A stretch of 64,000 nt of DNA, taken from positions 64,001-128,000 of IMG/VR virus record IMGVR_UViG_3300027833_000001. One strand, written 5' to 3'. A program made the position numbers and the translations under genes. Shown here piece after piece: positions 33,374-54,586 of this stretch. Under the pieces are notes generated by a model. That model saw only the letters and a list, made by a program, of their open reading frames with translations. It did no database searches and was not told the DNA's origin. Position 1 is the first letter of the stretch, and the number at the start of each line of letters is the position of its first letter. This DNA is from a virus.

Positions 33374-36300
33374 ATGGCATTAGACCTTAACGTATCACCA
33401 TATTATAACGATTTTGATGCAACCAAACAGTTTGAAAAAGTTCTTTTCAAGCCAGGTGTTGCAGTGCAGGCGAGAGAATTAACTCAGCTACAGTCATATC
33501 TTTCCAACGCGATTAAGAATCATGCCGAGTTTAGTCTCACTGAGGGTACACGGGTATCTGGTGGTGAGGGTACGGTATTATTTAAACCATATATTAAAAT
33601 CAACGATCTCGATTCCGCATCTGCAACCGTAGTCGATTCTACTTTAATAAACTATGTCGGTGATACTATTACAGGCAGTAGTACGGGCATCACAGCAACA
33701 ATTCTTTCAACTCAAACTGGCGCCGATTCTGATAACGTAAATAAGAAAACTCTTTACTTAGGCTATACTGGCGGTAATCCAACTGGTGCTGGAAGTCAAG
33801 GTAATGCAGTTCACTTTGACAGCGGAGAAACTCTTACTGTAACATCAACTGATTCTGGTAGAAATGGTGATACTTTTGTAGTTGATAGTACAAGAAGCAC
33901 AACTGATGTTGCATTAAACTATTATGGAATAGGATTGTTTTTTGTAGTCGCAGATGGTGTATTCTTTCTCAAGAATCAATTTGTAACACACTTACGACAA
34001 GAAATTCTACTGGAAAAATATAATCCAGTTGCTAGTTACTTTGTTGGTCTTCAAGTAAAAGAGACCATAATAACATCCGATACAGATACAAGTCTTCTTG
34101 ATCCATCTTCAGGATCATTTAACTTCAATGCACCCGGAGCAGACAGATATAAAGTTTCCACTGTACTTACTAAGAAGACATTAACAGAAGATTCCGACGC
34201 AGACTTTGTTGCAATCGATAAAGTCATTGATGGTAAATATTACCAGAAAGTAACAGAAGATGTTGGACAACTAAATGAAATTGGTAAGATTCTAGCAGGT
34301 AGAACATATGAAGAATCTGGAAACTATGTAACCGCACCATTCTCAATTGTGGTTGATGAGCATTTAAAAACTTCCAATAATAGAGGTAAGTTCCTATCGT
34401 CTAATACTGCTAGACCAGGAAACTCACAGAAACTGGCATTATCAATTGGTAGTGGTACAGCATATGTTAATGGATTTAGACACAACTTTCAGACACCACA
34501 AATTGTAGACATTGATAAAGCAACCACTACTCAGATAACTGAAGGACAAACCATATCAACTGGATACGGTAACTACTTCTATGTAAATGAGTTTGCTGGT
34601 ACTTGGAACATAAAAGACGGAACACTTGTAACAATTTATAATACAGCAAAAACTGCGGTAACTTCTGGCACATACGGCAGTACTTCAGCACCCGGTTCTT
34701 CTAATATTATAGGTCAAGCAAGAATTAAACAGATTGAATATTCTTCTGGCACATTGGGTGCAGCCGCAACAGTATACAGAATGTATCTTTATGATATTTC
34801 TATTACTAAGGGCAAACTCTCAGATGCTAAAGGATTATACTATTCAAATAGCACAGATAGTGGCTTTGCAGATTGTGTTTTAGAATCATCAAAAGCAGTT
34901 ATCAAAGAATCCACACAGAATAAATTAGTCTTCAGAACTCCTTATAGTAGCGCAAAAACTCTTGCGGCAGCCTCAGGCGGTTCATACGATACGCAGTATT
35001 ATTATCAAGAAGAATTTGATGTTACTTTCGCTGCCGATGGTACAGCAACAATATCAGTAACAGGAAGTTCACAGTTCCCATACACTGGAAGTATAACACA
35101 GACTATAATTGATAGAAACTTTATATTAGTTGCAACCAGTGGATCAACTATTAATGGCACAGCAATAACTGCCGGTAGAGTTATACCATTAACACCTGCA
35201 ATGATTACATCTGCATCAACTGGATCTCTGGTATTTGATCTGGGTACTGTTAGTGGTACTTCTACTGCTAAGATGTTTGTTAAAGTAGTCAATGTCGATT
35301 CAGCTCCTGTTCCTAAAAATCTCATATCAAATGTATATGTTAAAATTAACACCGCAACTAATGAGGGTGGAGCAACTGGACCATGGAACTTAGGTATATC
35401 TGACATATTCAGAATTACTGATGTTTACCTAGATGGTGATGGGTATGTTGAAACTGGAGAGAATCAACGAGCGAAATTCCTTCTCGATAACGGACAGAAA
35501 GATAACGTATATGGACATGGTAAGTTAAAGAAGAATACCAATTCTCCAATCAACACTACAAGCAAGTACATTGTTGTAAAATTGAAATGCTTCACACCAA
35601 ACTATGCCTCTACAGGCGGAACATATTTTGCAGTAAATTCATATCCTACAGATGATACTGGTTCAGCTGGTATCTACACATATGAAATTCCAAGATATGA
35701 TTCTAAACAATCTGGCTCATATAATCTTAGAGATTGTATTGACTTCAGACCAATGATTACAAATACAGCCGTAACAGCAACAGCTAACTTAGCCGCGGCA
35801 ACGATTAATCCATCTAAGAGTAATACGATAAATGCTCCAACTGATGGAGTACAACACCCTGCACCTACTCAGAATTTCACAACAGACGTTGAGTTCTATT
35901 TAAAAAGAATCGACAAAGTTGTGATTACAGATCAGAGTGAGTTCAAAGTCTTTAAGGGAATTCCGTCTGTTAGTCCCCGCAGTCCAATTGTACCTGAAAA
36001 TCAGGGAATGGCTTTGGTTGAACTGAATATTCCTGCATATCCTTCTGTATCTCCATTTGTAGGAGATGCTTTTGGAGTACCTGGTTATACAGTAGGTAAG
36101 AGACTATTACAGAATCGTAGATATACGATGTCCGATATTAGTCGTATAGAAAAAAGAATTAACAGATTAGAATATTATACTGCCTTGTCTCTTATGGAAC
36201 AAGAATCTCAGAATATGAACATTGTTGATGCTGATGGTAATACTAGATTTAAAAATGGTATTTTTATCAATGTGTTTACAACTCACGCATTAAGTGATGT

Positions 36301-39300
36301 TGCAGATCCCGCATTCAAGTGTGCTATTGATCCAACTACAAAACGTGTTGGACCAGCATACAAAGAAACTCGCGCAGATTTAGTTTTTAACTCCACAACA
36401 TCTTCTGGTGTAACTAGATCAGGCGATCTACTTACTCTTCCATTTACGAAGACAGTATTCTCAGAAAATAGATTCTCTTCTAAAGCTAGAAATTGTGTTG
36501 GTGAATTACTGTTCGCATGGGAAGGAGACTTGAATGTTTATCCTCGAGGTGCAAACTATGTAGATACTACTACGTTGGATGATTATCATGTTGAAGATAA
36601 TTCTTTAAGTGAGTTTGGTAACCAACTTGCAAATGATATCAGTAAAGCACAGATAATTTCTTCCTACGATGTTTCTTTTAGCTCCGTACCAAATGAACCA
36701 ACCTCACAAAGTTGGGGAGCTGAAACTTCAGCCTCTGACGAATTCACAACCACAACTGCATTTAGTGCAGGTGCCGAAGCGTCATCATCTGGATCAGATG
36801 CTATAGGCGGTCGAGGAGTTAGAGGCATTGCAGGCGTAAACGTAGATACAAATGCAACCGTTGACATAACAGGAACTGTCACTACTACTGGTAGAGTAGA
36901 TTCTTCATCTAGTATTTCAGGTTCAATAATAACAAACTCATCTACAACTACTGCAACAGCAACAAAACAGATGTTGACAGCAACAGCGGCACCCTATACA
37001 ACACAACAAGTTGCTATGGGTGAAAAACTTGTTTCCGCTGAACTTAATCTGTATATGAAAGCAATGCCATTGATGTATATTGGTACAAGATTTAAACCAA
37101 ATACAAAACTGTATGGATTCTTTGACGGTGAAGCACAGACTGCGGTAAAGTTTCAACCAGTACTCGCTTCAAATGTTAATAATTTAATCGCGCTGAAAAA
37201 TCAGCACTCAAGACCAGGGGATTTATTGGCGGCAGCGAGTGCCGCGGGGTATTTACTGCCTAGAGGTACTTCAATTACTTCAGACGCAAACGGAATTATT
37301 TGTGGATTCTACTATATGCCGGGCGGTACATTCATGGTCGGTGAGAGACAATTACGTTTTACCGATGATGTAAAAGATAGAGCATCATTTGTTACTACTT
37401 CAGCGCAAGCACCATTTAGTTCATCTGGCATATCTACAGTAGCACAACAAACTGTAGTATCAACAGCAATACCTAAAATTAATTTTGGACAAACTGCACC
37501 AGTATCAACGAACGTAGGTTCTTGGACACAAGTTACAAGCGTTGAAATGGGTGCTGTAAATATGTCTTCTTCTGTAACGGCTACTGCAAAATCTACCGTT
37601 GATCTGAATGTTGATTTAGAAACAGAAACACACGTTCAAGTTACAGGTGGTTTCGATCCAATAGCACAGACATTCTTTGTAGAAGATCCTGAAGGAGTAA
37701 TGGCAACAGAAGTCAAAGTATTCTTTAGAAAGAAATCTAGTACTGCTAGTATTACATTACAACTCAGAGAAGTTGTTAATGGTTATCCTTCACGATCAGT
37801 ACTGCCATACGGTGAAGTTAATCTAGCACCAAGTCAAGTTACAGTAACTACGGAAGATGCTGATGGAACTATCAGATTCTCTCCTGAAGGTCAGCCAGCG
37901 AATCCTTATACAACAACATTTGCATTCGAAGCACCAGTACAACTTAAAGGAAATACTGAATATTGTTTCGTTCTTCTCCCTGCTGGTAATAGTCCAGACT
38001 ATGAAGTTTGGTGTTCAGAACTAGGACAGAACAAAGTTGGAGTTGGTGTTCAGAATCAACGCATCTTTGCTGAAGATACAAACATAGGCGGAATACTATT
38101 CACATCTTCTAATAACAGAACTTGGAACGCTCACCAATCTGAAGATATGACCTATCAAATAACTAAAGCGGTATATGCTTCAAGTAACGGTACAGTACAT
38201 TTAGAAAATGGAAACACAGATTACATTATAGGCGAAAGCTATTCTGGTGGAAGACCTGCTGTTGGTACAGTCGTACACGGATGGAAAGCAACACTAACAT
38301 CTGGTGGTTCAGGTCATGCAGTGAATGATATTGTTACCCTAGCAAATGCAACTGACTCAGGTGGAAATACTCTTACTGGAGTTAAAGCTAAAGTAACAAC
38401 AGTATCGGGTGGAGCAATCACAGCATTTGCAATTAGCGATCCCGGCACACTTGCAGATAACTGGACAGGTAATCCGGGTGGGTTAAACCAGCTATCAACT
38501 AGTGGCACAGGAACAGGTGCATCAATATCACTTGTTCTTGCTAGAGGTCGAGTTACTAATTCTAATCCAATTACAGAACAAATAGATGTTGATGTAGATA
38601 CTGGACATTTCAGAAATCAAACTGATGGTGCTCTGATTACTCCAATAGGAAATGGCACAACATTCTTTACTAATACTGCAATTGAAGATAGAAAGTTTAA
38701 TCAAGTTAGAACTACGATGAATCTAGTTGAGAATGATGGTATAATGACATATGAATATGCACCAACAAAGTCTTCTAATGTATCTTCAGTCAGTACAACT
38801 TATGAAGTCCTTGGACTGAATGTAAGAAAGAATACTGCGGATGAGAAGTCAATTAGATCATATTCTAACGAAGACTATTATCTTTCTGGTGCCGACACGA
38901 AGTCGCTACACTTTAAGATAACATTACCAGCAGGTACTAATACTAACCTATCACCAGTGCTAGACTTATCAGCACTTGGATTGTTGACTGTTCAAAACTT
39001 GTTGAATAACGACAGCACAAACGAAACTACTAATGATGGTAATGCATTATCTAGATACATCAATAAGCCAGTTGTTCTCGCAGATGGTATGGAAGCACAA
39101 GATGTTGTTCTTCAAGTTGCGTTATTACAACCACCTGGTGCATCTATTGAAGTTTATGGTAAGTTCCAAGCAGAAGCAGATGATGCTAACTTCAATGAAG
39201 ATTTGCCTTGGATAAAATTAGCAAGAGATGATGACTGGTCGCCTATTGGGAGTTCTGTTACACAATCAGCATTTGTTGATTTTGGATTTAAAATACCTGA

Positions 39301-39823
39301 TGCAAACAAAACTGCAGGAGTATTTACATACTCAACTGACAGGGTCACAGAAATATCAATTGACACTGCTGGTTCTGGATATACATCTGCTCCCGAATTA
39401 TTCTTTAGTGCAGGAGAAGCAACAGCATTTGCTCTACTAAGTGGTAATACTGTAGGAAGTTTGACATTGACAGCACCGGGAAGAGATTATAGTAGCACTC
39501 CTACTATTGTAGTAGGTACGCAACACGCTGTATCAACACAATTTGCCACAAATCAGCAAGTAGCTAATGGAGCGAATCTATATACAGTGACAACTGGAGG
39601 TACTACAGCCGCATCTGGTAGCGCACCTACTCATACTAGTGGTAGTGCAACTGATGGAACTGTAGTGTTTGCATATGCAGGAGCTGCCGCACTTGTTTCA
39701 TGTACAGTGAATACAGTAACATTTGAAGAGTTCAAGAAGTTTTCTACTAAGTTTGTCTTCTTGTCTTCTAATACATCAAAAGTTCCATATGCAAAAGACT
39801 TACGCATTATAGCGACAACATAG
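33374..39823 (+). CDS. Large virion structural/fibre protein (VrlC-like, DUF4815-type)
   Basis: LNVSPYYNDFD, VLFKPG.AVQARELTQLQS, APGADRYK, RTYEESGNY, RRYTMSDI..IEKRI..LEYYT, DPIAQTF; CBM-like module near the C-terminus. Confidence 0.82.
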   Translation: MALDLNVSPYYNDFDATKQFEKVLFKPGVAVQARELTQLQSYLSNAIKNHAEFSLTEGTRVSGGEGTVLFKPYIKINDLDSASATVVDSTLINYVGDTITGSSTGITATILSTQTGADSDNVNKKTLYLGYTGGNPTGAGSQGNAVHFDSGETLTVTSTDSGRNGDTFVVDSTRSTTDVALNYYGIGLFFVVADGVFFLKNQFVTHLRQEILLEKYNPVASYFVGLQVKETIITSDTDTSLLDPSSGSFNFNAPGADRYKVSTVLTKKTLTEDSDADFVAIDKVIDGKYYQKVTEDVGQLNEIGKILAGRTYEESGNYVTAPFSIVVDEHLKTSNNRGKFLSSNTARPGNSQKLALSIGSGTAYVNGFRHNFQTPQIVDIDKATTTQITEGQTISTGYGNYFYVNEFAGTWNIKDGTLVTIYNTAKTAVTSGTYGSTSAPGSSNIIGQARIKQIEYSSGTLGAAATVYRMYLYDISITKGKLSDAKGLYYSNSTDSGFADCVLESSKAVIKESTQNKLVFRTPYSSAKTLAAASGGSYDTQYYYQEEFDVTFAADGTATISVTGSSQFPYTGSITQTIIDRNFILVATSGSTINGTAITAGRVIPLTPAMITSASTGSLVFDLGTVSGTSTAKMFVKVVNVDSAPVPKNLISNVYVKINTATNEGGATGPWNLGISDIFRITDVYLDGDGYVETGENQRAKFLLDNGQKDNVYGHGKLKKNTNSPINTTSKYIVVKLKCFTPNYASTGGTYFAVNSYPTDDTGSAGIYTYEIPRYDSKQSGSYNLRDCIDFRPMITNTAVTATANLAAATINPSKSNTINAPTDGVQHPAPTQNFTTDVEFYLKRIDKVVITDQSEFKVFKGIPSVSPRSPIVPENQGMALVELNIPAYPSVSPFVGDAFGVPGYTVGKRLLQNRRYTMSDISRIEKRINRLEYYTALSLMEQESQNMNIVDADGNTRFKNGIFINVFTTHALSDVADPAFKCAIDPTTKRVGPAYKETRADLVFNSTTSSGVTRSGDLLTLPFTKTVFSENRFSSKARNCVGELLFAWEGDLNVYPRGANYVDTTTLDDYHVEDNSLSEFGNQLANDISKAQIISSYDVSFSSVPNEPTSQSWGAETSASDEFTTTTAFSAGAEASSSGSDAIGGRGVRGIAGVNVDTNATVDITGTVTTTGRVDSSSSISGSIITNSSTTTATATKQMLTATAAPYTTQQVAMGEKLVSAELNLYMKAMPLMYIGTRFKPNTKLYGFFDGEAQTAVKFQPVLASNVNNLIALKNQHSRPGDLLAAASAAGYLLPRGTSITSDANGIICGFYYMPGGTFMVGERQLRFTDDVKDRASFVTTSAQAPFSSSGISTVAQQTVVSTAIPKINFGQTAPVSTNVGSWTQVTSVEMGAVNMSSSVTATAKSTVDLNVDLETETHVQVTGGFDPIAQTFFVEDPEGVMATEVKVFFRKKSSTASITLQLREVVNGYPSRSVLPYGEVNLAPSQVTVTTEDADGTIRFSPEGQPANPYTTTFAFEAPVQLKGNTEYCFVLLPAGNSPDYEVWCSELGQNKVGVGVQNQRIFAEDTNIGGILFTSSNNRTWNAHQSEDMTYQITKAVYASSNGTVHLENGNTDYIIGESYSGGRPAVGTVVHGWKATLTSGGSGHAVNDIVTLANATDSGGNTLTGVKAKVTTVSGGAITAFAISDPGTLADNWTGNPGGLNQLSTSGTGTGASISLVLARGRVTNSNPITEQIDVDVDTGHFRNQTDGALITPIGNGTTFFTNTAIEDRKFNQVRTTMNLVENDGIMTYEYAPTKSSNVSSVSTTYEVLGLNVRKNTADEKSIRSYSNEDYYLSGADTKSLHFKITLPAGTNTNLSPVLDLSALGLLTVQNLLNNDSTNETTNDGNALSRYINKPVVLADGMEAQDVVLQVALLQPPGASIEVYGKFQAEADDANFNEDLPWIKLARDDDWSPIGSSVTQSAFVDFGFKIPDANKTAGVFTYSTDRVTEISIDTAGSGYTSAPELFFSAGEATAFALLSGNTVGSLTLTAPGRDYSSTPTIVVGTQHAVSTQFATNQQVANGANLYTVTTGGTTAASGSAPTHTSGSATDGTVVFAYAGAAALVSCTVNTVTFEEFKKFSTKFVFLSSNTSKVPYAKDLRIIATT

Positions 39824-43764: not shown

Positions 43765-43931
43765 AGAGTCGATGGGAAGTCTGGAAACACGCTCTAGGTT
43801 CTTTTGATGAAGAAGATGGGTACGATGCACTTAATGAAGATCGCATAGCATTAATAAGAACTTTCATAGTGGGTTCTAATTTACTATGCGCTTACGTCAT
43901 TATAATTAATATCATTGTTGGTTGGTTCTAA
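43761..43931 (+). CDS. Small membrane protein (56 aa)
   Basis: MKSRWEVWKHALGSF...DRIALIRTFIV... with a hydrophobic C-terminus; ATGA overlap with the preceding gene. Not in the ORF track. Confidence 0.65.
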   Translation: MKSRWEVWKHALGSFDEEDGYDALNEDRIALIRTFIVGSNLLCAYVIIINIIVGWF

Positions 43932-44626
43932 AAGAAACCTTCTCGTTGACCTATAATCATAAATCGGTCATATACTTTCTTGCCTTCCCATGAGTAATAA
44001 GTTTGCTGTCTAGTACCTTCATATCCAACTTCATCGATTCCAACTTGATCTTTTAAATCAGCGATACTACTTACACAGTTAATACCGTACATCTCTTCAA
44101 TAACATTACTATTTTGTACTGCAAGAACAGCATTTGGATTCTTTGTAGTCAATTCTTTAAGTGGATACATTTGTTCTGTACACATACAGATAACTAGGTC
44201 AACATCAATCTTATTTAAATTTTCAAATTCAAATGGAACATCTAGATTCCAATGACGAATGTTTACAAATTTTTCTTGGGCGTAATACTTGTGAAGAATT
44301 TTAGATAACTCAATCGACTCTTCATCAATATCTACCATGTGTATTTGTGATACATCAATGTTCTCACATAGCAACGGTACTATAGGCATACCTAGCCAAG
44401 AGTTTAATATCAGTACTCTCATAGAACCAGTTTTAGTGTAGTACTCTTCCATGTACTCTTTAACTTCTTCTATTAGCCAAGTGCTGGCTTCCATGTTGTT
44501 GCCTTCTAGTGACTGTCTAAAGTCAACCAGCTTATGTGGCATTCGTTTTTCAATAACCGAGAGTGCTTCACCCCAGTTTTTAAAGTTGTTTAGAAAATTA
44601 TAATTTAATTCTTTAGAACTTGACAT
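43928..44626 (-). CDS. Class I SAM methyltransferase-like protein
   Basis: VLILNSWLG (degenerate motif I), MVDIDEE, DLVICMCTEQM, AVQNSN, RFMIIG. Confidence 0.55.
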   Translation of the reverse strand: MSSSKELNYNFLNNFKNWGEALSVIEKRMPHKLVDFRQSLEGNNMEASTWLIEEVKEYMEEYYTKTGSMRVLILNSWLGMPIVPLLCENIDVSQIHMVDIDEESIELSKILHKYYAQEKFVNIRHWNLDVPFEFENLNKIDVDLVICMCTEQMYPLKELTTKNPNAVLAVQNSNVIEEMYGINCVSSIADLKDQVGIDEVGYEGTRQQTYYSWEGKKVYDRFMIIGQREGFF

Positions 44627-45287
44627 CTTCACTTTTCCCCATTGAGTCAAAAATACATACGTATGGTAGATCACGATACACATGAGATTCAGTATCATGT
44701 GGATGGATAAAACCTTGATTGAAACTATACACCCAACCTATTGGGAATAGTTTAGTTTTTACAATTCGTCTATTATAGAAAAAGTTATCCAGACCACGAT
44801 AATACCATAATATTTGAGACTTGTATTGATTGAAATATTCAGTGATTTCATTACTATTTAGACTATCATTCCAACGAAGAACTGACGAATTTAAATCAGT
44901 GTACTTATGTGGAATGTGGCGTGTATCTTTGTATTGAGTCTCTAAGTCGTGCCACCATGTTTTAACGAAACATAAACAATCTTCAGGATCAAAGTTTGCT
45001 ATATCATCGATGTTCTTTTGTAGTATAGTATCTAAATCAAAGAACATCTTTTCACCTCTTTGAGTAACAATAGTCTCATCGAAGAGGTACATTTTATTCC
45101 ACCACTTCTCCAATTTGTTACCACCAGGCAATGAAAGTATTTTAATATCAGAATTTATATCTTTACTATCTTCAGTTAGACAATGAAACGTAAAATCTAT
45201 TGTCAGGTTCTCAAGACAACTTTCATATAGTTGATTGACATGAGATGCATTATATTTTGTACCCCATTTTACAGTATAGATATTCAT
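44613..45287 (-). CDS. Glycosyltransferase (KWG.KY family)
   Basis: TVKWGTKY, FHCLTED, WWNKMYLF, FFDLD, NSSVLRW. Confidence 0.75.
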   Translation of the reverse strand: MNIYTVKWGTKYNASHVNQLYESCLENLTIDFTFHCLTEDSKDINSDIKILSLPGGNKLEKWWNKMYLFDETIVTQRGEKMFFDLDTILQKNIDDIANFDPEDCLCFVKTWWHDLETQYKDTRHIPHKYTDLNSSVLRWNDSLNSNEITEYFNQYKSQILWYYRGLDNFFYNRRIVKTKLFPIGWVYSFNQGFIHPHDTESHVYRDLPYVCIFDSMGKSEDVKF

Positions 45288-46102
45288 TCGCCTCTCCAAT
45301 GTCTAAGAAGTTCTGGATGGGAGAGATCATCTTGTTTAGTACTTCCTCTACTTGCATCTTCAAATGGTAGTAAGTCAATATTAAATACACAGACAATACA
45401 GTGTTCTCTATACTTGGCTACATTCAAATCATCTTCATCCCATGATCTACCTCTATTCCAAGAGTATGCCATCCAAGATGGAAAATGATCCCATAAGTCT
45501 TCACCATATCTACCCCATTTCCATGAGTGGTAGTTATCAGTTCCATCTGTATATGTAAACCATATCTTCTTTTGGTTTGCCATCACATCATCCCAAATAC
45601 ACTCACATTGATCATCTGACCATACTTTACATGAGCCATTTGTATACGCTCCATGTGATAGTTTAAATCTTCTTGTTTGCATTGGTTTAGGATCTTGCCA
45701 CCACGATTTCATTTTTGTGGGTCTTTCCATATTGTATGTAATTATAGGAGTTAAGTCACCTTGAATAATTACATCTAAGTCAAAGAACACAAAGCGACCA
45801 CTAGGTTTATCAGGAGCAAAGTTGTGCGTGTTGAATACAAAAGTCTTTGCTCTGTCCCAACACCTTGCCATTCCATACTTAAAATCTTCAGCACCAAACC
45901 AATACTTAGGATGTATGTCTGGAATATCTGGGAAGTCAATTATCTGAACATCATCATCGATACCCTTAGCATCATCTGTATAGCAATAGAAATGAAACTC
46001 AAACTGATCGGGAGTATTTCTCTTTGCCATCTCTTTCAATCTGTTTACAAAATGTGGTCCATATTTCGTACCCCATTTAGCACATACATAATTTACTCTC
46101 AT
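45284..46102 (-). CDS. Glycosyltransferase (KWG.KY family)
   Basis: CAKWGTKYGP..VNRL, FYCYTDD, FFDLDVII, NGSC.VW. Confidence 0.75.
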   Translation of the reverse strand: MRVNYVCAKWGTKYGPHFVNRLKEMAKRNTPDQFEFHFYCYTDDAKGIDDDVQIIDFPDIPDIHPKYWFGAEDFKYGMARCWDRAKTFVFNTHNFAPDKPSGRFVFFDLDVIIQGDLTPIITYNMERPTKMKSWWQDPKPMQTRRFKLSHGAYTNGSCKVWSDDQCECIWDDVMANQKKIWFTYTDGTDNYHSWKWGRYGEDLWDHFPSWMAYSWNRGRSWDEDDLNVAKYREHCIVCVFNIDLLPFEDASRGSTKQDDLSHPELLRHWRGE

Positions 46103-48600
46103 TTACATTTACCACATTTCATTGTACATATATTCAAAGGCTTTCTCTTTAGATGTTCGCTGATATTAGCAAAATCTGTATTGTGTATTACTTCACCTGT
46201 AGTAAAACCTGCTAAGTTATTATACTTCATATTGTATGGATAGTCAATAGGGTGATATGGTAAAAGTTTATTTTCTACTACATCTCTTGCAATGAACGCA
46301 CAAGGAAAAGCATTACTAGACGAACCAATATAAAAGTATCCACTTTTTCTAGCATCACACCATACTGGATCTTTTTCTTTCATTTTTGGTTTAGTTGTTC
46401 TTATTTCATTTTTCTTTGCAAACTGCTTTAGGGTGTGAAAGTCTATTGGTTTATCTTTTGCAATAGTATTTTCAATTTGATTCTCTTGTTCTGACTTTAA
46501 CTCAGGCAGTACTTTTTGTATATGATCAACATATACAAGAGACTCAATATCACTAAATGTTTGTAGGGTTATAGTAATATTTTTGTCTTTTAAGTACTTA
46601 CAGATTTCTTCTAACTCTACACAGTTTACTGGGTCTGTTATTTCACACATAAAAGTTACCCAAGAAACTTTGTAACTATCGAATATATTTTTTATACTCT
46701 TTAGAGTGTGTTCATTACCGTCTACAAAAATGTCATTGAACTCTATGTTCGTATCATTCTGGCGAGTACTCAATTGTATCAGTGCGCCATCTGGTTCTTC
46801 ATCTTCATATAGACCACGATATAAGTCACTGTATTGTTCTCCATGCATTTGGAAATATTTTATGAGTGTATTTGTATCATCATTTTTCTGATTCATTATA
46901 GAAAGCAATTCTTCTTTAGGCATGATGTTGTATAATCGCTCAAAGACTTTCTCATAATTTTCTTTGTAAAACAATTCTTTTAGATATTCGATATAATATT
47001 TTTTATATAGCGATTGAACCTCATCCGAATCTGTATCCCAGAAGATACACTGAATACCATTGTCTACTACATTCTTCATAAAGTCTACTTTAATTGTTGG
47101 TAAAGTATTTTTATGCCACATTCTTCTATACAATGCGATTGCTTGTAGTCTAGTTATTTTCCAAAAGTATCTTACTGGTCCGTGTACTTTTACTTCTTCT
47201 GCTACAACTTTGTGCATCTTAGAAATATATCTTTCTTTGTAGAAATCATATACTTCCATTACAGTTTTGTTCCAGTACAATGATTCGTCACCATTTACAA
47301 GCATTGAGTCATCTGGATAATCAGCAATAAACTTCTTGTGCATAGAAATCATATCGCCAGTTTCATAAAGTTCTTTTATGGTCTGTAAATGTATTGAATC
47401 TATTTGTCTAATAAATGTAGTATCTGATATTTCTCTTTCCAATTCTGGAAGAGATTTCTTTATATCGTCTACATTACCAGTTAAGTGTGCATCTATCTCT
47501 GGAAAATCATTTACGAATTTATTTACAAGAGACTGTAAATCATTGCTCTTTATCAGTGATTCAATATCTTCAACAACCTCTTTATTCATAAAACGATTCT
47601 CTAACATTTCATCTGTCAGAGATTTCATTCCTAACCATTCTTTTAGAGTGTTGAAATTTTTTGAGTACTGATCCCAATCAGACCGTAGGCTAGGCAAATC
47701 TTTTGCAAATTTCTTTTCTAGTGTATCGTAGTCTTTATTTGTAAGAAGATTATCAATCTTAACCGTGTGCTTGTTTCTAGTAAAGAAGTTTTTAGGAAAT
47801 TTAGGTAACCATAACTTTTCAAATTCATCTTTGCCGTGCCAATGTATTAATAGATTGTAATTCTTTAGTTCGTGTGGTTTAACACCAGACGTATTCTTAC
47901 CAAGCATATCGACATTGAACAGAGCAAACTTTGCATTATCTCTATACAAGTTTTGTGAAAGATCATCTGGATATTGTTTGCCTCTATTGTAAGAGTACAC
48001 CCAGTCTACTGGTAAGAAGTTCCAGTAATTATCACCCACTGTTTGATGTTCTCTATATGGATAATAATTGTCGGTGCCTTTATAGAATGTTTTGAACACA
48101 ACATCACTATGTGCCATAACATCATCATAAATCTTTTCACCCTGATCAGTACACCACAACATCACACTAGAGTTATATAGTGATCCTTTTATATCTAAGA
48201 ATCGTCTATCTTTAATTACAGAGGGATCTTCCCAATGAGAATAGATCATATGAGGAGACTTTGCGAGTTGTTCTATTTCGTCAATGTTGTTTTGTATTAT
48301 GATATCTAAATCAAGATAGCAGAAAGGACCTTTTGTTTTTAGCCATCGATGTGAATTGAGCATAAGAAACTTGGCTCTATCCCAACAGTAATTCTCTTCA
48401 CCAAACCAGTATCTAGGATGTAATGGCTTAACATTAGGAATTGGGCGAGTAGTAATACCCTTATTGATACCTTCTGGCTCATCTGTATAGCAGATGAATT
48501 TAAAACGCTTTGTATAATTGCGTTTGACCATTCCGTGAAGGTTGTTTACATATTCTGCGGTATACTTGTTACCCCATTTTATGCATAGAAAGTGCATCAT
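46099..48600 (-). CDS. Multidomain protein: glycosyltransferase, helical region, Cys-rich SPASM/Twitch-like C-terminus
   Basis: CIKWGNKY..YVNNL, CYTDE, YLDLDIII, NSSVMLW; C-terminal WCDA...YI.....FPCAF...CTMKCGKC. Confidence 0.7.
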   Translation of the reverse strand: MMHFLCIKWGNKYTAEYVNNLHGMVKRNYTKRFKFICYTDEPEGINKGITTRPIPNVKPLHPRYWFGEENYCWDRAKFLMLNSHRWLKTKGPFCYLDLDIIIQNNIDEIEQLAKSPHMIYSHWEDPSVIKDRRFLDIKGSLYNSSVMLWCTDQGEKIYDDVMAHSDVVFKTFYKGTDNYYPYREHQTVGDNYWNFLPVDWVYSYNRGKQYPDDLSQNLYRDNAKFALFNVDMLGKNTSGVKPHELKNYNLLIHWHGKDEFEKLWLPKFPKNFFTRNKHTVKIDNLLTNKDYDTLEKKFAKDLPSLRSDWDQYSKNFNTLKEWLGMKSLTDEMLENRFMNKEVVEDIESLIKSNDLQSLVNKFVNDFPEIDAHLTGNVDDIKKSLPELEREISDTTFIRQIDSIHLQTIKELYETGDMISMHKKFIADYPDDSMLVNGDESLYWNKTVMEVYDFYKERYISKMHKVVAEEVKVHGPVRYFWKITRLQAIALYRRMWHKNTLPTIKVDFMKNVVDNGIQCIFWDTDSDEVQSLYKKYYIEYLKELFYKENYEKVFERLYNIMPKEELLSIMNQKNDDTNTLIKYFQMHGEQYSDLYRGLYEDEEPDGALIQLSTRQNDTNIEFNDIFVDGNEHTLKSIKNIFDSYKVSWVTFMCEITDPVNCVELEEICKYLKDKNITITLQTFSDIESLVYVDHIQKVLPELKSEQENQIENTIAKDKPIDFHTLKQFAKKNEIRTTKPKMKEKDPVWCDARKSGYFYIGSSSNAFPCAFIARDVVENKLLPYHPIDYPYNMKYNNLAGFTTGEVIHNTDFANISEHLKRKPLNICTMKCGKCK

Positions 48601-49228
48601 AATATTTCTGTCTCAAATTAACGGTAGTTTCACTTTGTCCGTTCAGTAGTACTATAGGATATTCTGGTAATATCTGATACGCTCTAGGTGAAGTATCAGT
48701 CTCAGTATCTACACCACATAAAAATGAATAAATCATATTTTTAGGAAATGTTCTTTGAATCAATTTTTCATGGAATAAATACCAATCATCATTGTCTTTA
48801 TATTTAGTCATGTAGTAATCAATGTTTTCTAGCCAATCATCATATATCAAAGATGGGTGTTTTTCATCTGAATTCCATGTCATCACCGAAGAGTTGTATT
48901 TACTTCCAAAATCTTTCCAGTAGGTTTGACATATAGTTGGCTTATCACAGTAAGAAAAGAATTCATATATGTCACATTGTAACACAATATCTAGGTCTAA
49001 GTAAAGAACTTCACCAATATTTTTTAGACTAAATAGTTGTATCTTTCTCCAATTACTTTCAATATCTTCATTAATGAATTTAACATCTATTTCAGGTCGA
49101 AGTAAATGTGCATGGTCTGAAGTAGTTAAACAAACATAATTATATTCGCCACGAGTACTATCATATATTCTATGTACGTCATCAACGCTATACTTATCTC
49201 CATACAGAAGGGTTAGGATTGTCTTCAA
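48569..49228 (-). CDS. Glycosyltransferase (same family)
   Basis: YGDKY, VCLT, WRKIQLF, YLDLDIV, YNSSVMTW; TTG start with GGAG RBS. Confidence 0.72.
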   Translation of the reverse strand: MKTILTLLYGDKYSVDDVHRIYDSTRGEYNYVCLTTSDHAHLLRPEIDVKFINEDIESNWRKIQLFSLKNIGEVLYLDLDIVLQCDIYEFFSYCDKPTICQTYWKDFGSKYNSSVMTWNSDEKHPSLIYDDWLENIDYYMTKYKDNDDWYLFHEKLIQRTFPKNMIYSFLCGVDTETDTSPRAYQILPEYPIVLLNGQSETTVNLRQKYYDALSMHKMG

Positions 49229-49280: not shown

Positions 49281-49607
49281 ATGGCAACGGTAAATAATAT
49301 CGTGATTGATCAGGGCACTACCTTTTCATTTACGGTCAATCTTACGAATGACGATGGTACCAAGAAAGATTTGACGAATTATGCCGTCACTTCTCAGATG
49401 CGTAAAAGTTATTACACTACTACTTATACGTCATTCACTACAGCGAAAATAGATTTAGAAGGTCAGATTACTATATCTTTGACCGCCGCTCAATCATCTG
49501 CTGTAAAGGCTGGAAGATACGTTTACGATATTGAGATTGCTAGTTCAACTGAAACATTGAGGATTATGGAAGGAATTGTGACTGTAACTCCGGAGGTTAC
49601 AAAGTAA
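49281..49607 (+). CDS. Ig-like adaptor protein (BppU N-terminal-like)
   Basis: IDQGTTF, DLT.Y....QMRKSY, G.I.ISLTA.Q, GRYVYDIEI, EG.VTVTPEVT. Confidence 0.7.
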   Translation: MATVNNIVIDQGTTFSFTVNLTNDDGTKKDLTNYAVTSQMRKSYYTTTYTSFTTAKIDLEGQITISLTAAQSSAVKAGRYVYDIEIASSTETLRIMEGIVTVTPEVTK

Positions 49608-49885
49608 TGGCAATAAAAGTAAATATACCATCGAATGCAAGTACTACGAAAGTAAGCATACCGACAACAGGTACTATTGCTTCAGTTGTTACTACACAAT
49701 CTCAGGCAATTACAAACGCAAAGTTACAAAATTTAGCCAATATTGATATTTCAACTAATGGTTTATTGGACGGTCATACTTTGGTTTATGATGAAGAAAC
49801 AGGCAATTTTGTTGCCCAAGCATTAACCGCTTCTGTTGATATTGATTCATTGAATCTAACATCACTAGATGGTGGAACGTATTAG
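49607..49885 (+). CDS. Small fibre adaptor ending in LDGGTY
   Basis: L..L..ID....DG.TLVYD...G.F; C-terminal LDGGTY. Confidence 0.65.
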   Translation: MAIKVNIPSNASTTKVSIPTTGTIASVVTTQSQAITNAKLQNLANIDISTNGLLDGHTLVYDEETGNFVAQALTASVDIDSLNLTSLDGGTY

Positions 49886-49946
49886 TGATCAACATTCGTT
49901 ATGAACAAAAGATTTCAGTAAACATAGAAAAATGAGGAAACATTAA

Positions 49947-51209
49947 ATGGCAACCACTATTCAGATTAAGCGATCAACCGCTTCTGCCGCACCAGCAACT
50001 ACTGATTTAGTAGAAGCGGAACTGGCATATAGCCAAGACAAAAGCAATGATGGCACCGGTGCCATCCTTTATATTGAATCCGTAAACAACGATAACAGTG
50101 CAGTAATCCACAAACTTGGTGGTAAATTCTATACAGATATCGTTGACGGTGCAACCAATGCGAACACCGGAAACAAACTTGTAAAAAGAGATGCGAGTGG
50201 TAACATTGCCGCTGGTACTATTACGTTTGGCAGTCTTGCTGACGGTACAATCACAGCAACAGGTTTTGTTGATGAAGATAACATGGCATCAAATAGTGCC
50301 ACACTTATCCCAACTCAGCAATCAGTTAAAGCATACGTAGATTCTAAAGATTTCTATGTAGACCTTGGTATAGCTGGCGACTCTGGTACTGGAGCAATTA
50401 CAGATGCAGAAACACTTACTCTTACTGGTGGAACAGGTATCACAACAGCGGTATCTGGCAATGAAGTTACTCACACACTAGATAACACCGCAGTAAGTGC
50501 GGGTAGTTATGGTAGTACTACTGCTATTCCTACTTTTACAGTAGACGCACAAGGTAGATTGACAGCCGCAGGCACTGCTTCAATTTCAACTTCATTTAAT
50601 ATTGCTGGTGACAGTGGTACTACAAATGCTATTGATGGTGCAGAAACGCTTACTTTTAACGGCACAACAAATGAAATAGAAACCGCAGTATCAGCAAATG
50701 CAGTTACTATTGGTCTTCCTACTAACCCAACTATCGGTGGTAATCTTACTGTCTCTGGTAACTTGATTGTTTCTGGTACTAGAACAGAAGTAAACACACA
50801 GACTTTGGAAGTAGTTGATCCACTATTTGCACTTGCAACGAACAACAGTAGTTCCGATGCAGTTGATATTGGTTTCTACGGACTCTATGATACGTCTGGA
50901 TCTCAAGACCTATACAGTGGTCTTTTCAGAGATGCAAACGATGGTAAATGGAAACTGTTTAAAGATACACAAGCAGTACCAACAACAGTGGTTGATACTA
51001 CTGGTACTGGTTATGCAGTCGCATCGCTAGTAGCAAACTTGGAAGGTAACGTAACTGGTAACGTAACTGGTACAACTTCAAGTATTGCAAACCACGATAC
51101 GGATGCCCTTAGTGAAGGGTCAAGTAATCTTTACTACACAGCCGCACGTTTCAATAGTGCATTTGACACTAGACTTGACGCCGCAACTATAGACGGTGGT
51201 ACTTACTAA
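49947..51209 (+). CDS. Fibre protein
   Basis: N-terminal IQIKRS..P..L..AELAYS, GSYGS.TAIP.FTVDAQGRLT.A, G.LTV.GNL.V.G; C-terminal IDGGTY. Confidence 0.72.
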   Translation: MATTIQIKRSTASAAPATTDLVEAELAYSQDKSNDGTGAILYIESVNNDNSAVIHKLGGKFYTDIVDGATNANTGNKLVKRDASGNIAAGTITFGSLADGTITATGFVDEDNMASNSATLIPTQQSVKAYVDSKDFYVDLGIAGDSGTGAITDAETLTLTGGTGITTAVSGNEVTHTLDNTAVSAGSYGSTTAIPTFTVDAQGRLTAAGTASISTSFNIAGDSGTTNAIDGAETLTFNGTTNEIETAVSANAVTIGLPTNPTIGGNLTVSGNLIVSGTRTEVNTQTLEVVDPLFALATNNSSSDAVDIGFYGLYDTSGSQDLYSGLFRDANDGKWKLFKDTQAVPTTVVDTTGTGYAVASLVANLEGNVTGNVTGTTSSIANHDTDALSEGSSNLYYTAARFNSAFDTRLDAATIDGGTY

Positions 51210-51235
51210 CAATTAATTATTTTTGGAGATGATAC

Positions 51236-51385
51236 ATGGATGAGAAATTAGTGAATCAATATATTCAAACTATGGCGGAAGAAATTAACCGCTTGACGCA
51301 AGAAAATATTGTTTTGAAATCGAAGTTAGTGATTGCAACACAATCATTGAATACTCAGAATGAAGAAACAAAAGAAGAGGACTAA
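51236..51385 (+). CDS. Small coiled-coil protein (49 aa, possible fibre chaperone)
   Basis: GGAG RBS; MDEKLVNQYIQTMAEEINRLTQENIVLKSKL...; not in the ORF track. Confidence 0.65.
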   Translation: MDEKLVNQYIQTMAEEINRLTQENIVLKSKLVIATQSLNTQNEETKEED

Positions 51386-51808
51386 ATGGCTACAGTAATA
51401 CGATTAAAAAGATCCGAAACAGCAAGTGATGCTCCAACTGCATCTGACTTAGCTGTGGGTGAAATTGCCATGAATATGGCAGATCGTCTACTGTACTCTA
51501 AGAAAACTGACGGAAGTATAATTTCCATAGGCGCCGCAAGATTACCAGAATCTTTTACTTGGTCAAATGACTTAGATTTTGGTACCTTAGCTACTGCGAC
51601 TGGAGATGCTTACGATTGGGGTGACCTCACATCTGCTTCAACTGAGTACGATTTAGGCGCGGTAACAACAATAACCAATATACATTCAGATGCGCCTGCC
51701 AGTGCAACTGCAAGTGGAACAAAAGGGGATTTAACTTTCGACTCGGACTATATGTACGTCTGTGTCGCTACTAATACCTGGAAACGTGTTGCGCTTTCAA
51801 GTTGGTAA
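51386..51808 (+). CDS. Short fibre/adaptor protein
   Basis: N-terminal IRLKRS..AP..DLAVGEIA.N.AD..LY; three D[FWL]G motifs; C-terminal PASATASGTKG...D.DY.YVCVATNTWKRVALSSW. Confidence 0.7.
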   Translation: MATVIRLKRSETASDAPTASDLAVGEIAMNMADRLLYSKKTDGSIISIGAARLPESFTWSNDLDFGTLATATGDAYDWGDLTSASTEYDLGAVTTITNIHSDAPASATASGTKGDLTFDSDYMYVCVATNTWKRVALSSW

Positions 51809-51844
51809 GCTAATATATATTTATAGAGAGTAAAGAGATAAACT

Positions 51845-52864
51845 ATGCCAACAAAATTACAACTAAGACGAGGTAGTACATCAGACCATTCCAGTTTTAC
51901 TGGCGCCGTCGGTGAAGTTACCATCGATACAGACAAGGATACTCTGGTAGTTCATGACGGATCAACCGCTGGTGGATTTGTAGTACCTAGACTATCTGAT
52001 ATTAGCGTAACCGATTCGGGTGGTGACGGCTCGCTTTCATATAACAATTCAACCGGTGTACTTACTTATACTGGTCCAAGCGCATCTGAAGTTAGAGCGC
52101 ACATTACTGCTGGTGCTGGTATTTCAGTTTCAAGTGGTGTTGTTACATTAGACATACTTGACGAAGATAACTTTTCAACAGATAGTGCCACAAAAGCTCC
52201 TTCACAGCAATCTACAAAAGCATATATTGCTAGCCAGATTGCAACCAAAGACAATACAGATGAGATGACAGAAGGGTCAACCAATCTCTACTTTACGAAT
52301 TCTAGAGCAGACGCAAGAATATCAAATGCTCTTAAAGATGAAGATAACATGGCATCTGATAGTGCTACACATCTTCCTTCTCAACAAAGCGTTAAAGCAT
52401 ACGTTGATGCACAGACAACAGACGAAACTGCGGAAGGTTCATCTAATTTATATTTTACCACTGCCCGAGTTGATTCACAAATAGATTCATATCTCAATGC
52501 AGGAACTGGAATAACACTTGCTGGTAGTGGCGCAGTCGCAGTTAATACCTCTGTCATACCAACAATAACTGCAATGAATTCAGCAATTGCAACAAGCATA
52601 TCTAACCTAGTCGATTCATCACCAGATGCATTGAATACGTTAAATGAGTTAGCCGCAGCCTTAGGCGATGATGCTAACTTCAGTACGACAGTAACAAACA
52701 GTATAGCAACAAAAGCTCCACTTGCTAGTGCGGCTCTTACGGGTACACCAACAGCACCCACAGCAAGTACGGGTACAAACACTACTCAACTAGCTACTAC
52801 TGCTTACGTAAAACAAGAAATAGATGCACTCAAGGCACTCTTGTATGCATATGATCAATCATAA
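51845..52864 (+). CDS. Fibre protein with an Mtd_N-like N-terminal domain
   Basis: LQLRRGSTSDHSSFTGAVGEVTIDTDKDTLVVHDGSTAGG; PDALNTLNELAAALGDDANF; LTGTPTAPT..TNTTQLATTAYV. Confidence 0.78.
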   Translation: MPTKLQLRRGSTSDHSSFTGAVGEVTIDTDKDTLVVHDGSTAGGFVVPRLSDISVTDSGGDGSLSYNNSTGVLTYTGPSASEVRAHITAGAGISVSSGVVTLDILDEDNFSTDSATKAPSQQSTKAYIASQIATKDNTDEMTEGSTNLYFTNSRADARISNALKDEDNMASDSATHLPSQQSVKAYVDAQTTDETAEGSSNLYFTTARVDSQIDSYLNAGTGITLAGSGAVAVNTSVIPTITAMNSAIATSISNLVDSSPDALNTLNELAAALGDDANFSTTVTNSIATKAPLASAALTGTPTAPTASTGTNTTQLATTAYVKQEIDALKALLYAYDQS

Positions 52865-52875
52865 GGCGGAGTTAA

Positions 52876-53841
52876 ATGGCGTTATCAACTAGACAAGGAC
52901 TAATAGACTATTGTTTAAGACGTTTGGGCTTCCCGGTTATTGAGATTAATATCGATGATGATCAGATAGAAGACCGCGTTGACGATGCTTTACAATTATT
53001 CCAAGAATACCACTTTGATGGTGTTGAAAGAACATATGTAAAGCACCAAATAACAGGGTCTACTTTAAACATTCAAACTGGCATTGCCGCAAACTTCAAT
53101 GTGGGTGAAACTGTAACTGGAGCAACTAGTGGTGCTACAGCGGAAGTAGTAACTGGAGTAGCAAGCGCATTAACAGTAGACAATATTAAAGGCACATTCG
53201 TAGCAAGCGAAGTACTTAACGGTTCAGTAAGTGGACTATCTGCTACACTCTCAGCATCGAATTTCTATGCCGCGGGTGATTTGGAAAATGGATACTTTCC
53301 AATCAATTCAAACATTCTAAGTATACAGAGACTATTCCCAATAGGGCAGAGTTCTCAGACAACTGGTACAAACAATATGTTTGACCTTATGTATCAAATG
53401 CGAATGAATGATATGTACAGTTTACTGAGTGCTGACCTCACGTATTACAGCATGGTACAGACGCACCTAAGCACTCTGGATCAAATGTTTGTTAATCAGC
53501 GACAGATACGTTGGAATAGAAAAACGAACAAACTTTATATCGACACTGATTGGGATTTAACTTTCAATGTGGGCGATTATGTTGTAGCAGAAGCATACGC
53601 AATCATAGACCCTTCACTATATCCTGAAGTGTGGGATGATATGTTCCTTAAAAAATATCTTACCGCATTGCTCAAAAGACAATGGGGAGAAAACATGAAG
53701 AAATTTGGAGGAATACAATTACCGGGCGGAGTGACTTTAAACGGTGTAGAATTATTTCAAGAAGCAACCGCCGAGATCGCACAGATTGAAGATGAGATGC
53801 AGATGAAGTATGAACTACCACCGACATTTATGGTGGGATAA
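52876..53841 (+). CDS. gp13: Neck protein gp13
   Basis: LIDYCLRRLG.PVIEINIDDDQ.EDR.DDALQ.F.EYHFDG, KRQWGEN.KKF.GIQLPGGVTLNG. Confidence 0.95.
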   Translation: MALSTRQGLIDYCLRRLGFPVIEINIDDDQIEDRVDDALQLFQEYHFDGVERTYVKHQITGSTLNIQTGIAANFNVGETVTGATSGATAEVVTGVASALTVDNIKGTFVASEVLNGSVSGLSATLSASNFYAAGDLENGYFPINSNILSIQRLFPIGQSSQTTGTNNMFDLMYQMRMNDMYSLLSADLTYYSMVQTHLSTLDQMFVNQRQIRWNRKTNKLYIDTDWDLTFNVGDYVVAEAYAIIDPSLYPEVWDDMFLKKYLTALLKRQWGENMKKFGGIQLPGGVTLNGVELFQEATAEIAQIEDEMQMKYELPPTFMVG

Positions 53842-53848
53842 ATAGAGC

Positions 53849-54586
53849 ATGGCTACTAATTTTTACTTCCAAAATGGTGACACCTCAGGCACAACCTCAG
53901 AACAAAGGCTAGTAGAAAGCCTTGTAATAGAGAGTCTGAAGATTTACGGGCATGATGTTTTTTATTTGCCACGTACTCTGGTAAACAGAGATACAATCTT
54001 TGACGAAGATGCACTGTCTAAGTTCACACAATCATATCCTTTAGAAATGTACATGGAGAATGTACAAGGGTTTGAGGGCGACGGAGATATATTTTCTAAG
54101 TTTGGTATAGAAATACGAGACTCAGCCACATTTGTATTGGCAAAGAAACGATGGGAAGATTTAGTAGATACTTCTGGCGGTACTTTTCAGTTAGACGCAA
54201 GACCTGCAGAAGGAGACTTACTGTATTTTGCTAAGACAGGATCACTATTTGAAATTAAATTTGTAGAGTTTCAAAATCCATTCTATCAACTTGGAAAGAT
54301 ATACGTATTTAGATTACAATGTGAATTGTTTCAGTATAGTTCAGAAGTACTTGATACTGGTAATGCTGGTGTTGATGCTATCGAAGATGGTAATTCTCTC
54401 GATTCATTCCTGTTTCAGTTGAAGACTGAAGCTGGTGATCTACTACTTTCAGAGACAAGCGATTCAATTATTAAAGAAGAATTTGCAACAACGAAGACTA
54501 ATGCAAATACTGATAACGATGACTTCTTAAACTTCACTGATATAGTGGACTTCACTGAAGTAAATCCATTTGGTGAGGTAGGTTAA
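53849..54586 (+). CDS. gp14: Neck protein gp14
   Basis: EQRL.E.L.IES.KIYG.D..YLPR, SKFG.EIRD, RP.EGDL.Y, PFYQLGK, DFTE.NPFG. Confidence 0.95.
   Translation: MATNFYFQNGDTSGTTSEQRLVESLVIESLKIYGHDVFYLPRTLVNRDTIFDEDALSKFTQSYPLEMYMENVQGFEGDGDIFSKFGIEIRDSATFVLAKKRWEDLVDTSGGTFQLDARPAEGDLLYFAKTGSLFEIKFVEFQNPFYQLGKIYVFRLQCELFQYSSEVLDTGNAGVDAIEDGNSLDSFLFQLKTEAGDLLLSETSDSIIKEEFATTKTNANTDNDDFLNFTDIVDFTEVNPFGEVG

Follow-up and report, generated by a model that had tools for sequence, protein, structure and literature searches.

Class-matched tail motifs and N-terminal domains suggest a jointed, head-to-tail fiber encoded upstream of gp13 in a T4-like marine myovirus

Introduction

The distal rod of the phage T4 fiber is described as (gp36)3-(gp37)3 (preprint 10.64898/2026.03.06.709160). 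In phages T5 and DT57C, the lateral fibers are anchored by p132/LtfC, a dodecameric collar with an immunoglobulin (Ig) fold, the sheets of which are extended by the N-terminal strands of the fibers in a process of strand augmentation (PMC10038345, PMC10713586). Recognition between successive fiber proteins is poorly resolved even for gp36 and gp37, for which no residue-level structure is available; the T4 fiber literature places the two proteins in one rod and does not resolve the joint itself. Older T4 work has the C-terminal end of gp36 meeting the N-terminal end of gp37. The present analysis concerns a 64,000-nucleotide (nt) stretch of viral DNA (positions 64,001 to 128,000 of IMG/VR record IMGVR_UViG_3300027833_000001; the whole stretch is referred to as the window) and, within it, a module of putative fiber genes at positions 49281 to 52864, in which short C-terminal tail motifs alternate with conserved N-terminal domains.

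Jointed fibers made of several proteins and conserved N-terminal anchors were already known. Literature searches for the pentapeptide, for Mtd_N together with tail fiber, for Bbp9, and for the cryo-electron microscopy of BPP-1 returned no account of the tail motif or of its class-specific pairing with N-terminal domains.

Results

The genes at 49281 to 52864 probably encode one multisegment fiber that is built head to tail, with a collar followed by proteins of 92, 420, 140, and 339 amino acids (aa). As read from the sequences, a short C-terminal tail (plug) of each segment would seat in an N-terminal domain (socket) of the next. Five unannotated genes of this phage would thereby be turned into a specific model of one appendage. 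The features of the module are listed below.

49281..49607, plus strand: 108-aa Ig-like protein, putative homologue of the p132/LtfC collar proteins (T5 p132, DT57C LtfC)
49607..49885, plus strand: 92-aa putative chain starter with a beta-strand-rich N terminus and no socket; C-terminal plug L-D-G-G-T-Y at 49865-49882
49947..51209, plus strand: 420-aa putative fiber protein with a gp37_N-type socket at 49947-50111 and the C-terminal plug I-D-G-G-T-Y at 51189-51206
51236..51385, plus strand: 49-aa coiled-coil protein matching phrog_1399 (E = 9e-5), with weak coiled-coil Pfam matches
51386..51808, plus strand: 140-aa putative adaptor with a gp37_N-type socket at 51386-51541, plugs at 51575-51658, and a C-terminal domain at 51671-51805
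51845..52864, plus strand: 339-aa putative distal fiber protein with an Mtd_N socket at residues 6-41 and a C terminus without a plug

The 420-aa protein opens with M-A-T-T-I-Q-I-K-R-S, the 140-aa protein with M-A-T-V-I-R-L-K-R-S, and the 339-aa protein with M-P-T-K-L-Q-L-R-R-G. A preliminary description of this DNA had built its proposal of a peptide docking code on the L-D-G-G-T-Y and I-D-G-G-T-Y endings and the I-Q-I-K-R-S and I-R-L-K-R-S starts, all of which were recovered at the coordinates given above, as were the three spaced motifs it had noticed in the 140-aa protein, namely, D-F-G, D-W-G, and D-L-G at residues 64, 77, and 89 (spacing of 12 to 13 residues). Within the 165-kb genome, D-G-G-T-Y occurs in only two open reading frames (ORFs), which are adjacent fiber genes, and it is C-terminal in both; no other gene among the 204 in the genome has a D-x-G C-terminal tail. 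The three N-terminal basic motifs are likewise confined to three real, clustered genes. The pattern D-[FYWLMG]-G has a genome-wide frequency of 0.00087 per residue, corresponding to approximately 0.12 expected occurrences in 140 aa, versus the 3 observed. Because the motifs are rare genome-wide, are placed C-terminally, and form a triplet where approximately 0.12 would be expected, their arrangement goes beyond chance.

Sequence comparison identified both kinds of N-terminal domain: the domain marked by K-R-S is the N-terminal domain type of T4 gp37 (gp37_N), and that marked by R-R-G is Mtd_N, the latter as had been suspected from the L-Q-L-R-R-G start. The 339-aa protein matched Pfam PF18454 (Mtd_N) at residues 6-41 with 53.6 bits, against a gathering cutoff of 26.3 (E = 2e-14); its residues 1-64 matched Mtd in PDB entry 1yu0 (phmmer, E = 2e-12), and its N terminus was 59% identical to Mtd over 49 residues (tblastn). 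Residues 1-52 of the 140-aa protein were 46% identical to residues 1-54 of T4 gp37 (E = 1e-12), and its N-terminal 55 aa matched 1,056 phage records in a tblastn search, mostly gp37 of T4-like phages. The socket of the 420-aa protein was recovered by a gp37_N-type family profile in a profile search of the genome (E = 1.1e-21); its first 58 residues had no tblastn match among phage records. No Pfam family covers the gp37_N-type domain, and sequence searches against the PDB retrieved no structure matching the 420-aa protein, the 140-aa protein, T4 gp36, or the gp37_N profile. The gp37_N and Mtd_N profiles align in register (hhalign probability, 74%; E = 2.8e-5), which suggests that the two classes are probably distant relatives.

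Beyond the sockets, the shaft of the 420-aa protein matched fiber and baseplate PHROGs, and that of the 339-aa protein matched many fiber PHROGs. Residues 243-309 of the 339-aa protein (window positions 52571-52771) also matched a chain of PDB entry 9d93 annotated "tail collar fibers, gp4" (E = 2.2e-8). In the 140-aa protein, the third motif is followed by a 45-aa C-terminal domain (residues 96-140; window positions 51671-51805), and related adaptors stop at the last motif. This domain matches phrog_17312 and also ends other phage tail proteins (phrog_17312 and phrog_21017).

The motifs are conserved in related viruses. When the 420-aa and 92-aa proteins were used to query IMG/VR, 85 loci were obtained, and across these loci the commonest ORF ending was [LI]-D-G-G-[TS]-[YF], found in 83 ORFs and spelled by dozens of synonymous codon combinations; since the tail codons vary synonymously, selection acts on the protein and not on the DNA. 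Eighteen distinct complete syntenic modules shared one gene grammar, with the motifs kept at the protein level. In this grammar, an Ig-like gene is followed by a tail-only starter (71 to 103 aa), a large fiber gene with socket and tail, mostly a coiled-coil gene, a small adaptor gene that combines a socket with aliphatic D-x-G motifs, often a gene for a 66- to 84-aa protein with Mtd_N and D-G-G-T-Y, a large tail-less Mtd_N fiber gene, sometimes a second small adaptor gene, and gp13. The gene for a starter homologue invariably comes after the Ig-like gene, and its product invariably has the C terminus [LI]-D-G-G-T-[YF]; in adaptor homologues, two or three D-x-G motifs stand in tandem, and the 66- to 84-aa proteins are hardly more than one socket and one plug. 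The subclade of the window is without the 66- to 84-aa protein and has an adaptor with the extra C-terminal domain. The coiled-coil gene (49 to 181 aa) lies between the large fiber and adaptor genes in most related modules, and its product may be a fiber assembly chaperone.

Pairs of the same composition were found in other phages. An aliphatic D-x-G tail on the gene before an Mtd_N gene was present in BPP-1, in which bbp9, directly upstream of mtd, encodes the C terminus D-L-G-G-I-A; in HTVC008M, Roseobacter phage CRP-3, and T7-like cyanophage S-TIP37; and in a Syntrophomonadaceae phage, Vibrio phages D69 and 1.021.A, and Escherichia coli phage Minorna, the last with two successive joints. 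Close tail variants (N-L-G-G and D-R-G) that were accepted by the junction script preceded Mtd_N in Pseudomonas phage AH02 and Vibrio phage K437b. A single-sequence query for Mtd_N in bacterial-genome contexts (prophages or metagenome-assembled genomes) showed an aliphatic tail upstream in 13 of the 14 evaluable cases in which Mtd_N was clear; the tail frequently comprised two or three motifs in tandem. In a 756-aa protein of Vibrio phage 1.007.O, an aliphatic D-L-G tail and Mtd_N are fused, four residues apart. On the aromatic side, T4 gp36, encoded directly upstream of gene 37, ends in D-F-G-Y-Y; the corresponding ending is D-F-G-[TSY]-[YF] in gp36 of Acinetobacter, Klebsiella, and Salmonella T4-like phages. 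Tails of the form [DSN]-G-G-x-[YF] preceded gp37_N-type domains in a Vibrio podovirus and the cyanosiphovirus S-CBS2 (two joints each), a Ralstonia phage, the jumbo phage RsoM2USA, an uncultured podovirus, Limnohabitans phage DC31, and Methylophilales phage Melnitz; an Ig-like gene and a small starter were likewise present in DC31 and Melnitz. Among these pairing cases, T4 gp36/gp37 and Mtd at the BPP-1 fiber ends are those in which the two partners are known to be connected in the virus particle.

The association was quantified in 48 junctions outside the clade of the window, which came from many families and were not all independent. An aromatic tail preceded gp37_N in 14 junctions, and an aliphatic tail preceded Mtd_N in 23; no aliphatic tail preceded gp37_N, one aromatic tail preceded Mtd_N as scored, and 10 junctions had no tail before either domain. 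The downstream gene of the lone aromatic-to-Mtd_N junction matches neither domain, and there were therefore no real crossovers. With that junction included as scored, tail class and domain class were associated at a Fisher p value of 1.6e-9.

The converse search started from the tail, using a DNA pattern for I-D-G-G-T-F-stop in IMG/VR; its figures are those among the matches listed. Among these, 81 of 82 DNA matches were true ORF ends, and a gp37_N-type domain lay within 300 nt downstream in 46 of 77 evaluable cases versus 24 of 646 control ORF ends of the same loci (odds ratio, 38; p = 3e-34); approximately half of the control positives were the Ig-like gene of the same module. Among the same listed matches, 28 tails had no detected socket next and were followed, for example, by a coiled-coil gene similar to that of the module (5 tails, on unrelated contigs), a third N-terminal domain subtype (6 tails), or gp13 (1 tail). 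The third subtype has the approximate form [KR]-R-G, gap, G-E-P, gap, T-D and is the start of hyaluronidase-type fibers; its occurrence implies a socket superfamily with more than two classes. On one contig, a 133-codon ORF ending in I-D-G-G-T-F directly precedes a gp13 homologue, with no socket gene between them. The co-occurrence of motif and domain across genomes, which the preliminary description had named as a way to check its proposal, thus took the form of a class-specific pairing that was found in both search directions across unrelated phages.

The presumed base of the fiber is the 108-aa protein, which matched phrog_1084 (E = 7.5e-26) and phrog_3304, annotated "L-shaped tail fiber protein assembly" (E = 4.4e-19); its Pfam match to PF23926 (LtfC), at 15.5 bits, was below the cutoff of 27. 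An AlphaFold2 (AF2) model of the protein had a predicted local distance difference test score (pLDDT) of 90.5, and PDB ranks 1 to 4 in Foldseek were held by 8hqz_T/Q and 7qg9_L/J (TMq, 0.71 to 0.79; E, approximately 1e-8). These chains belong to the DT57C baseplate and the T5 tail tip and were taken as LtfC/p132 from their lengths of 137 to 140 aa together with PMC10038345 and PMC10713586. The PHROG match and the AF2/Foldseek comparison agree with the placement of an Ig-like adaptor at the base in the preliminary description and suggest that it is an anchoring protein of the T5 p132/LtfC type. The 108-aa protein thus models as a p132/LtfC-type collar and is proposed to form the anchoring ring of the fiber. 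The 92-aa starter, with its conserved strand-like N terminus and its constant position after the Ig-like gene, could by analogy take the role of LtfA. In a BLASTP comparison with T4 gp36, this starter gave E = 0.38 over 13 residues, with no homology along its length; it would work like gp36 without belonging to its family, the tail pattern alone being common to both.

The motifs observed and conserved here, the identified domains, and the two-way co-occurrence of classes allow a proposal for the contacts between tails and domains, their order, and the stoichiometry of the fiber. The strand-rich N terminus of the 92-aa starter would be held by the p132/LtfC-like Ig protein, arranged as a ring or patch, and the aromatic-ended tail of the starter (D-G-G-T-Y) would seat in the gp37_N-type domain of the 420-aa fiber. 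The 140-aa adaptor would in turn receive the identical tail of the 420-aa fiber in its own gp37_N-type domain, and the tandem aliphatic D-x-G segment of the adaptor would be received by Mtd_N of the 339-aa distal fiber. The 339-aa protein, having no tail, would terminate the chain. Since the base has a plug without a socket and the tip a socket without a plug, the order would run from the collar through the 92-, 420-, and 140-aa proteins to the 339-aa protein. The counts of tails and domains match in this complete genome (two aromatic tails and two gp37_N domains; one aliphatic segment and one Mtd_N domain) and in two complete relatives (three aromatic tails and three gp37_N domains; two aliphatic tails and two Mtd_N domains). 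Under the class rule, the second small adaptor of these two relatives is predicted to stand between the Mtd_N mini-adaptor and the terminal fiber.

The source record is a complete virus genome of 165,127 bp with direct terminal repeats, and its gene complement marks it as a T4-like marine myovirus. Baseplate genes gp5, gp6, gp7-like, and gp8 lie at 22.6 to 33.4 kb of the window, and gp13, gp14, and gp15 lie at 52.9 to 55.6 kb. The fiber module fills the interval directly upstream of gp13 and is bordered downstream by the following pair.

52876..54586, plus strand: neck genes gp13 and gp14 (phrog_211, E = 4.8e-42; phrog_460, E = 7e-80; Pfam T4_neck-protein, E = 3.8e-35)

At the DNA level, the closest cultured relatives are cyanophages and pelagiphage HTVC008M, with approximately 70% identity that is limited to gp13/gp14. 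Back to back with the fiber module, the minus strand carries a series of paralogous glycosyltransferase-like genes (window positions 43928-49228; phrog_1962), including an 833-aa fusion; the series occupies the same place in related IMG/VR loci, with a variable number of paralogues, and may serve the glycosylation of Ser/Thr-rich fibers. Between gp8 and the fiber region, a 2,149-aa ORF (window positions 33374-39823) probably encodes a VrlC-like giant structural protein, as in HTVC008M.

Discussion

A head-to-tail chain is favored as the reading of this module, and several observations weigh against it. In 10 of the 48 junctions, a socket has no recognizable tail upstream, as in cyanomyophages S-CAM3, S-SSM7, and S-CAM9, and phylogenetic independence does not hold for all of the counted junctions. 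After some aromatic tails comes the third N-terminal domain subtype, and one such tail stands directly before gp13. Five distinct related modules (three sequence types), on contigs that are 18 to 48% complete, have a D-G-G-T-Y adaptor directly before the Mtd_N fiber and no third gp37_N gene; either the class rule is not strict or the partner is encoded elsewhere. As judged by PDB sequence searches, the solved structures cover neither gp36 nor the N-terminal end of gp37. A monomeric read-through fusion of the starter of a relative with the next socket, in which the stop codon TAA was read as Q, was modeled from an unpaired block alignment and reached a pLDDT of 45.6 and a predicted template modeling score of 0.28, values that speak neither for nor against docking. 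Finally, adjacency of genes is a mere proxy for physical adjacency.

The most serious competing explanation is that each gp37_N or Mtd_N protein binds the virion (collar, baseplate, or neck) independently, with the D-x-G tail acting as a generic trimer cap or chaperone signal and the co-occurrence merely reflecting the clustering of fiber genes. Such parallel attachment appears unlikely. It agrees with the general rule that receptor-binding proteins are anchored to the tail by their N termini (PMC12143355), with the conserved coiled-coil gene, a possible chaperone, inside the module, and with the aromatic tail directly before gp13; moreover, D-G-G-T-Y is identical wherever it is present and hence carries no order information. 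However, it leaves unexplained both the class-specific pairing of tails and domains across unrelated phages and the natural fusion of a tail to Mtd_N, and it would make the 66- to 84-aa proteins shaft-less fibers, for which it offers no explanation. Furthermore, this tail and domain lie on either side of the joint between T4 gp36 and gp37, two proteins that make up one rod.

The uniformity of D-G-G-T-Y also bears on the proposal that the peptides spell out an assembly hierarchy. The part of that proposal which stands is that the class of the tail tracks the class of the domain; the hexapeptide alone cannot order proteins within a class, as the same D-G-G-T-Y is used everywhere. A position-specific code within the D-G-G-T-Y class was rejected, the motif being the same at all three positions in relatives.

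In a second alternative, the fiber is branched: each of the three D-x-G motifs of the 140-aa protein would recruit a separate Mtd_N trimer, making the adaptor a three-way hub. The regular spacing of the three motifs, at 12 to 13 residues, would suit such a hub, tandem motifs occur in many lineages, and Vibrio phage K437b has two Mtd_N genes downstream of a tail with two motifs; in addition, DT57C provides a precedent, with LtfB attached through LtfA (PMC10713586). Nevertheless, this genome has a single Mtd_N gene, as do most lineages with two or three motifs in the stretch examined, and the number of motifs varies from one to three without a matching change of partner. The motifs are also close together, so that three trimeric fibers would be expected to clash unless the linker were fully extended. 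The preliminary description had envisaged up to three terminal fibers; the counts of tails and domains in the three complete genomes instead fit a linear chain and give no sign of branching, and a branched fiber is considered improbable.

Equally improbable is a split domain, in which the tail is the last strand or strands of a formerly continuous joint domain, the genes arose by fission of longer fibers, and assembly proceeds by fold complementation, although this is a refinement of the chain more than a true alternative to it. The contiguity of tail and Mtd_N in Vibrio phage 1.007.O is what this explanation would expect, the internal position of the aliphatic motifs in the 140-aa protein makes a free carboxylate unnecessary, and LtfA joins LtfC through strand donation (PMC10713586). 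Against it, that fusion is the only one among all loci examined, and the sequences just before the tails are unrelated between proteins, which is more like a portable short motif than a domain remnant. A cause at the level of DNA or RNA (a repeat, read-through, or a coupling signal) was rejected in view of the free synonymous variation, the gaps differing in length and frame, and the several intervening stops.

Whether the joint is general is an evenly balanced question. If it is, a C-terminal plug (hydrophobic, D, x, G, x, hydrophobic) and an N-terminal socket superfamily of approximately 45 residues would form a joint common to every tail type, with aromatic plugs directed to gp37_N and aliphatic plugs to Mtd_N; the sockets would comprise gp37_N, Mtd_N, and at least one further subtype, and T4 gp36/gp37 and BPP-1 Bbp9/Mtd would be two instances. 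The order of fiber assembly and its exchangeable modules could then be read directly from gene sequences. Such a tail-socket rule would allow annotators to order fiber proteins and to tell adaptors from tips in uncultured phage genomes, would explain many of the tiny "hypothetical" genes in fiber clusters, and would give structural biology a defined interface across myo-, sipho-, and podoviruses, for which the fused tail and Mtd_N of Vibrio phage 1.007.O would be a good structural target.

The site of the fiber on the virion can be considered by comparison with T4 and T5. The preliminary description had read the position before gp13 as pointing to a neck or collar appendage, an argument that did not hold, as the same slot in T4 carries gp9-gp12 as well as wac. 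The module shares with T4 fibritin (wac) its genome place just upstream of gp13, and no fibritin or foldon family was found among the listed Pfam and PHROG matches of any module protein. The collar of the T5 p132 type sits at the tail tip, and the slot before gp13 in T4 holds baseplate fibers and whiskers; a neck position is thus unsupported.

As in T5 and DT57C, the first gene models as the p132/LtfC fold and is followed by a gene whose N terminus would insert, as that of LtfA does; DT57C also hangs a second fiber protein on the first. The resemblance has limits: identity is 23 to 26%, the protein described here has 108 aa versus approximately 140 aa, and the Pfam LtfC match is below the cutoff. 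Furthermore, T5 is a siphovirus with its collar at the tail tip, whereas the present phage has a contractile tail. In BPP-1, the N terminus of Mtd is the same Mtd_N domain as in the 339-aa protein, and the aliphatic D-x-G tail of bbp9 resembles that of the 140-aa adaptor. No C-type lectin variable domain is seen in the 339-aa protein, unlike in Mtd; the rest of the protein is a fiber shaft with common fiber repeats, and the locus shows no diversity-generating retroelement. BPP-1 is, moreover, short-tailed, and the phage described here is a myovirus.

The comparison with T4 has two sides. No homology to gp36 was found here beyond the tail, and no equivalents of gp34 or gp35 were seen; the chain has more joints than the T4 fiber and two mixed socket classes, starts from a p132/LtfC-like protein rather than from gp9/gp34, and is encoded by genes that adjoin gp13 instead of forming a separate late cluster. 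On the other side, the N-terminal domains of the 140- and 420-aa proteins are of the gp37 type, the gp36 tail D-F-G-Y-Y and D-G-G-T-Y share the pattern D-x-G-x-aromatic, and several proteins would stand end to end in one fiber, as at the gp36-gp37 joint. By analogy, the joints of this fiber would be of the same kind as those from gp36 to gp37 in T4 and from the upstream fiber protein to Mtd in BPP-1.

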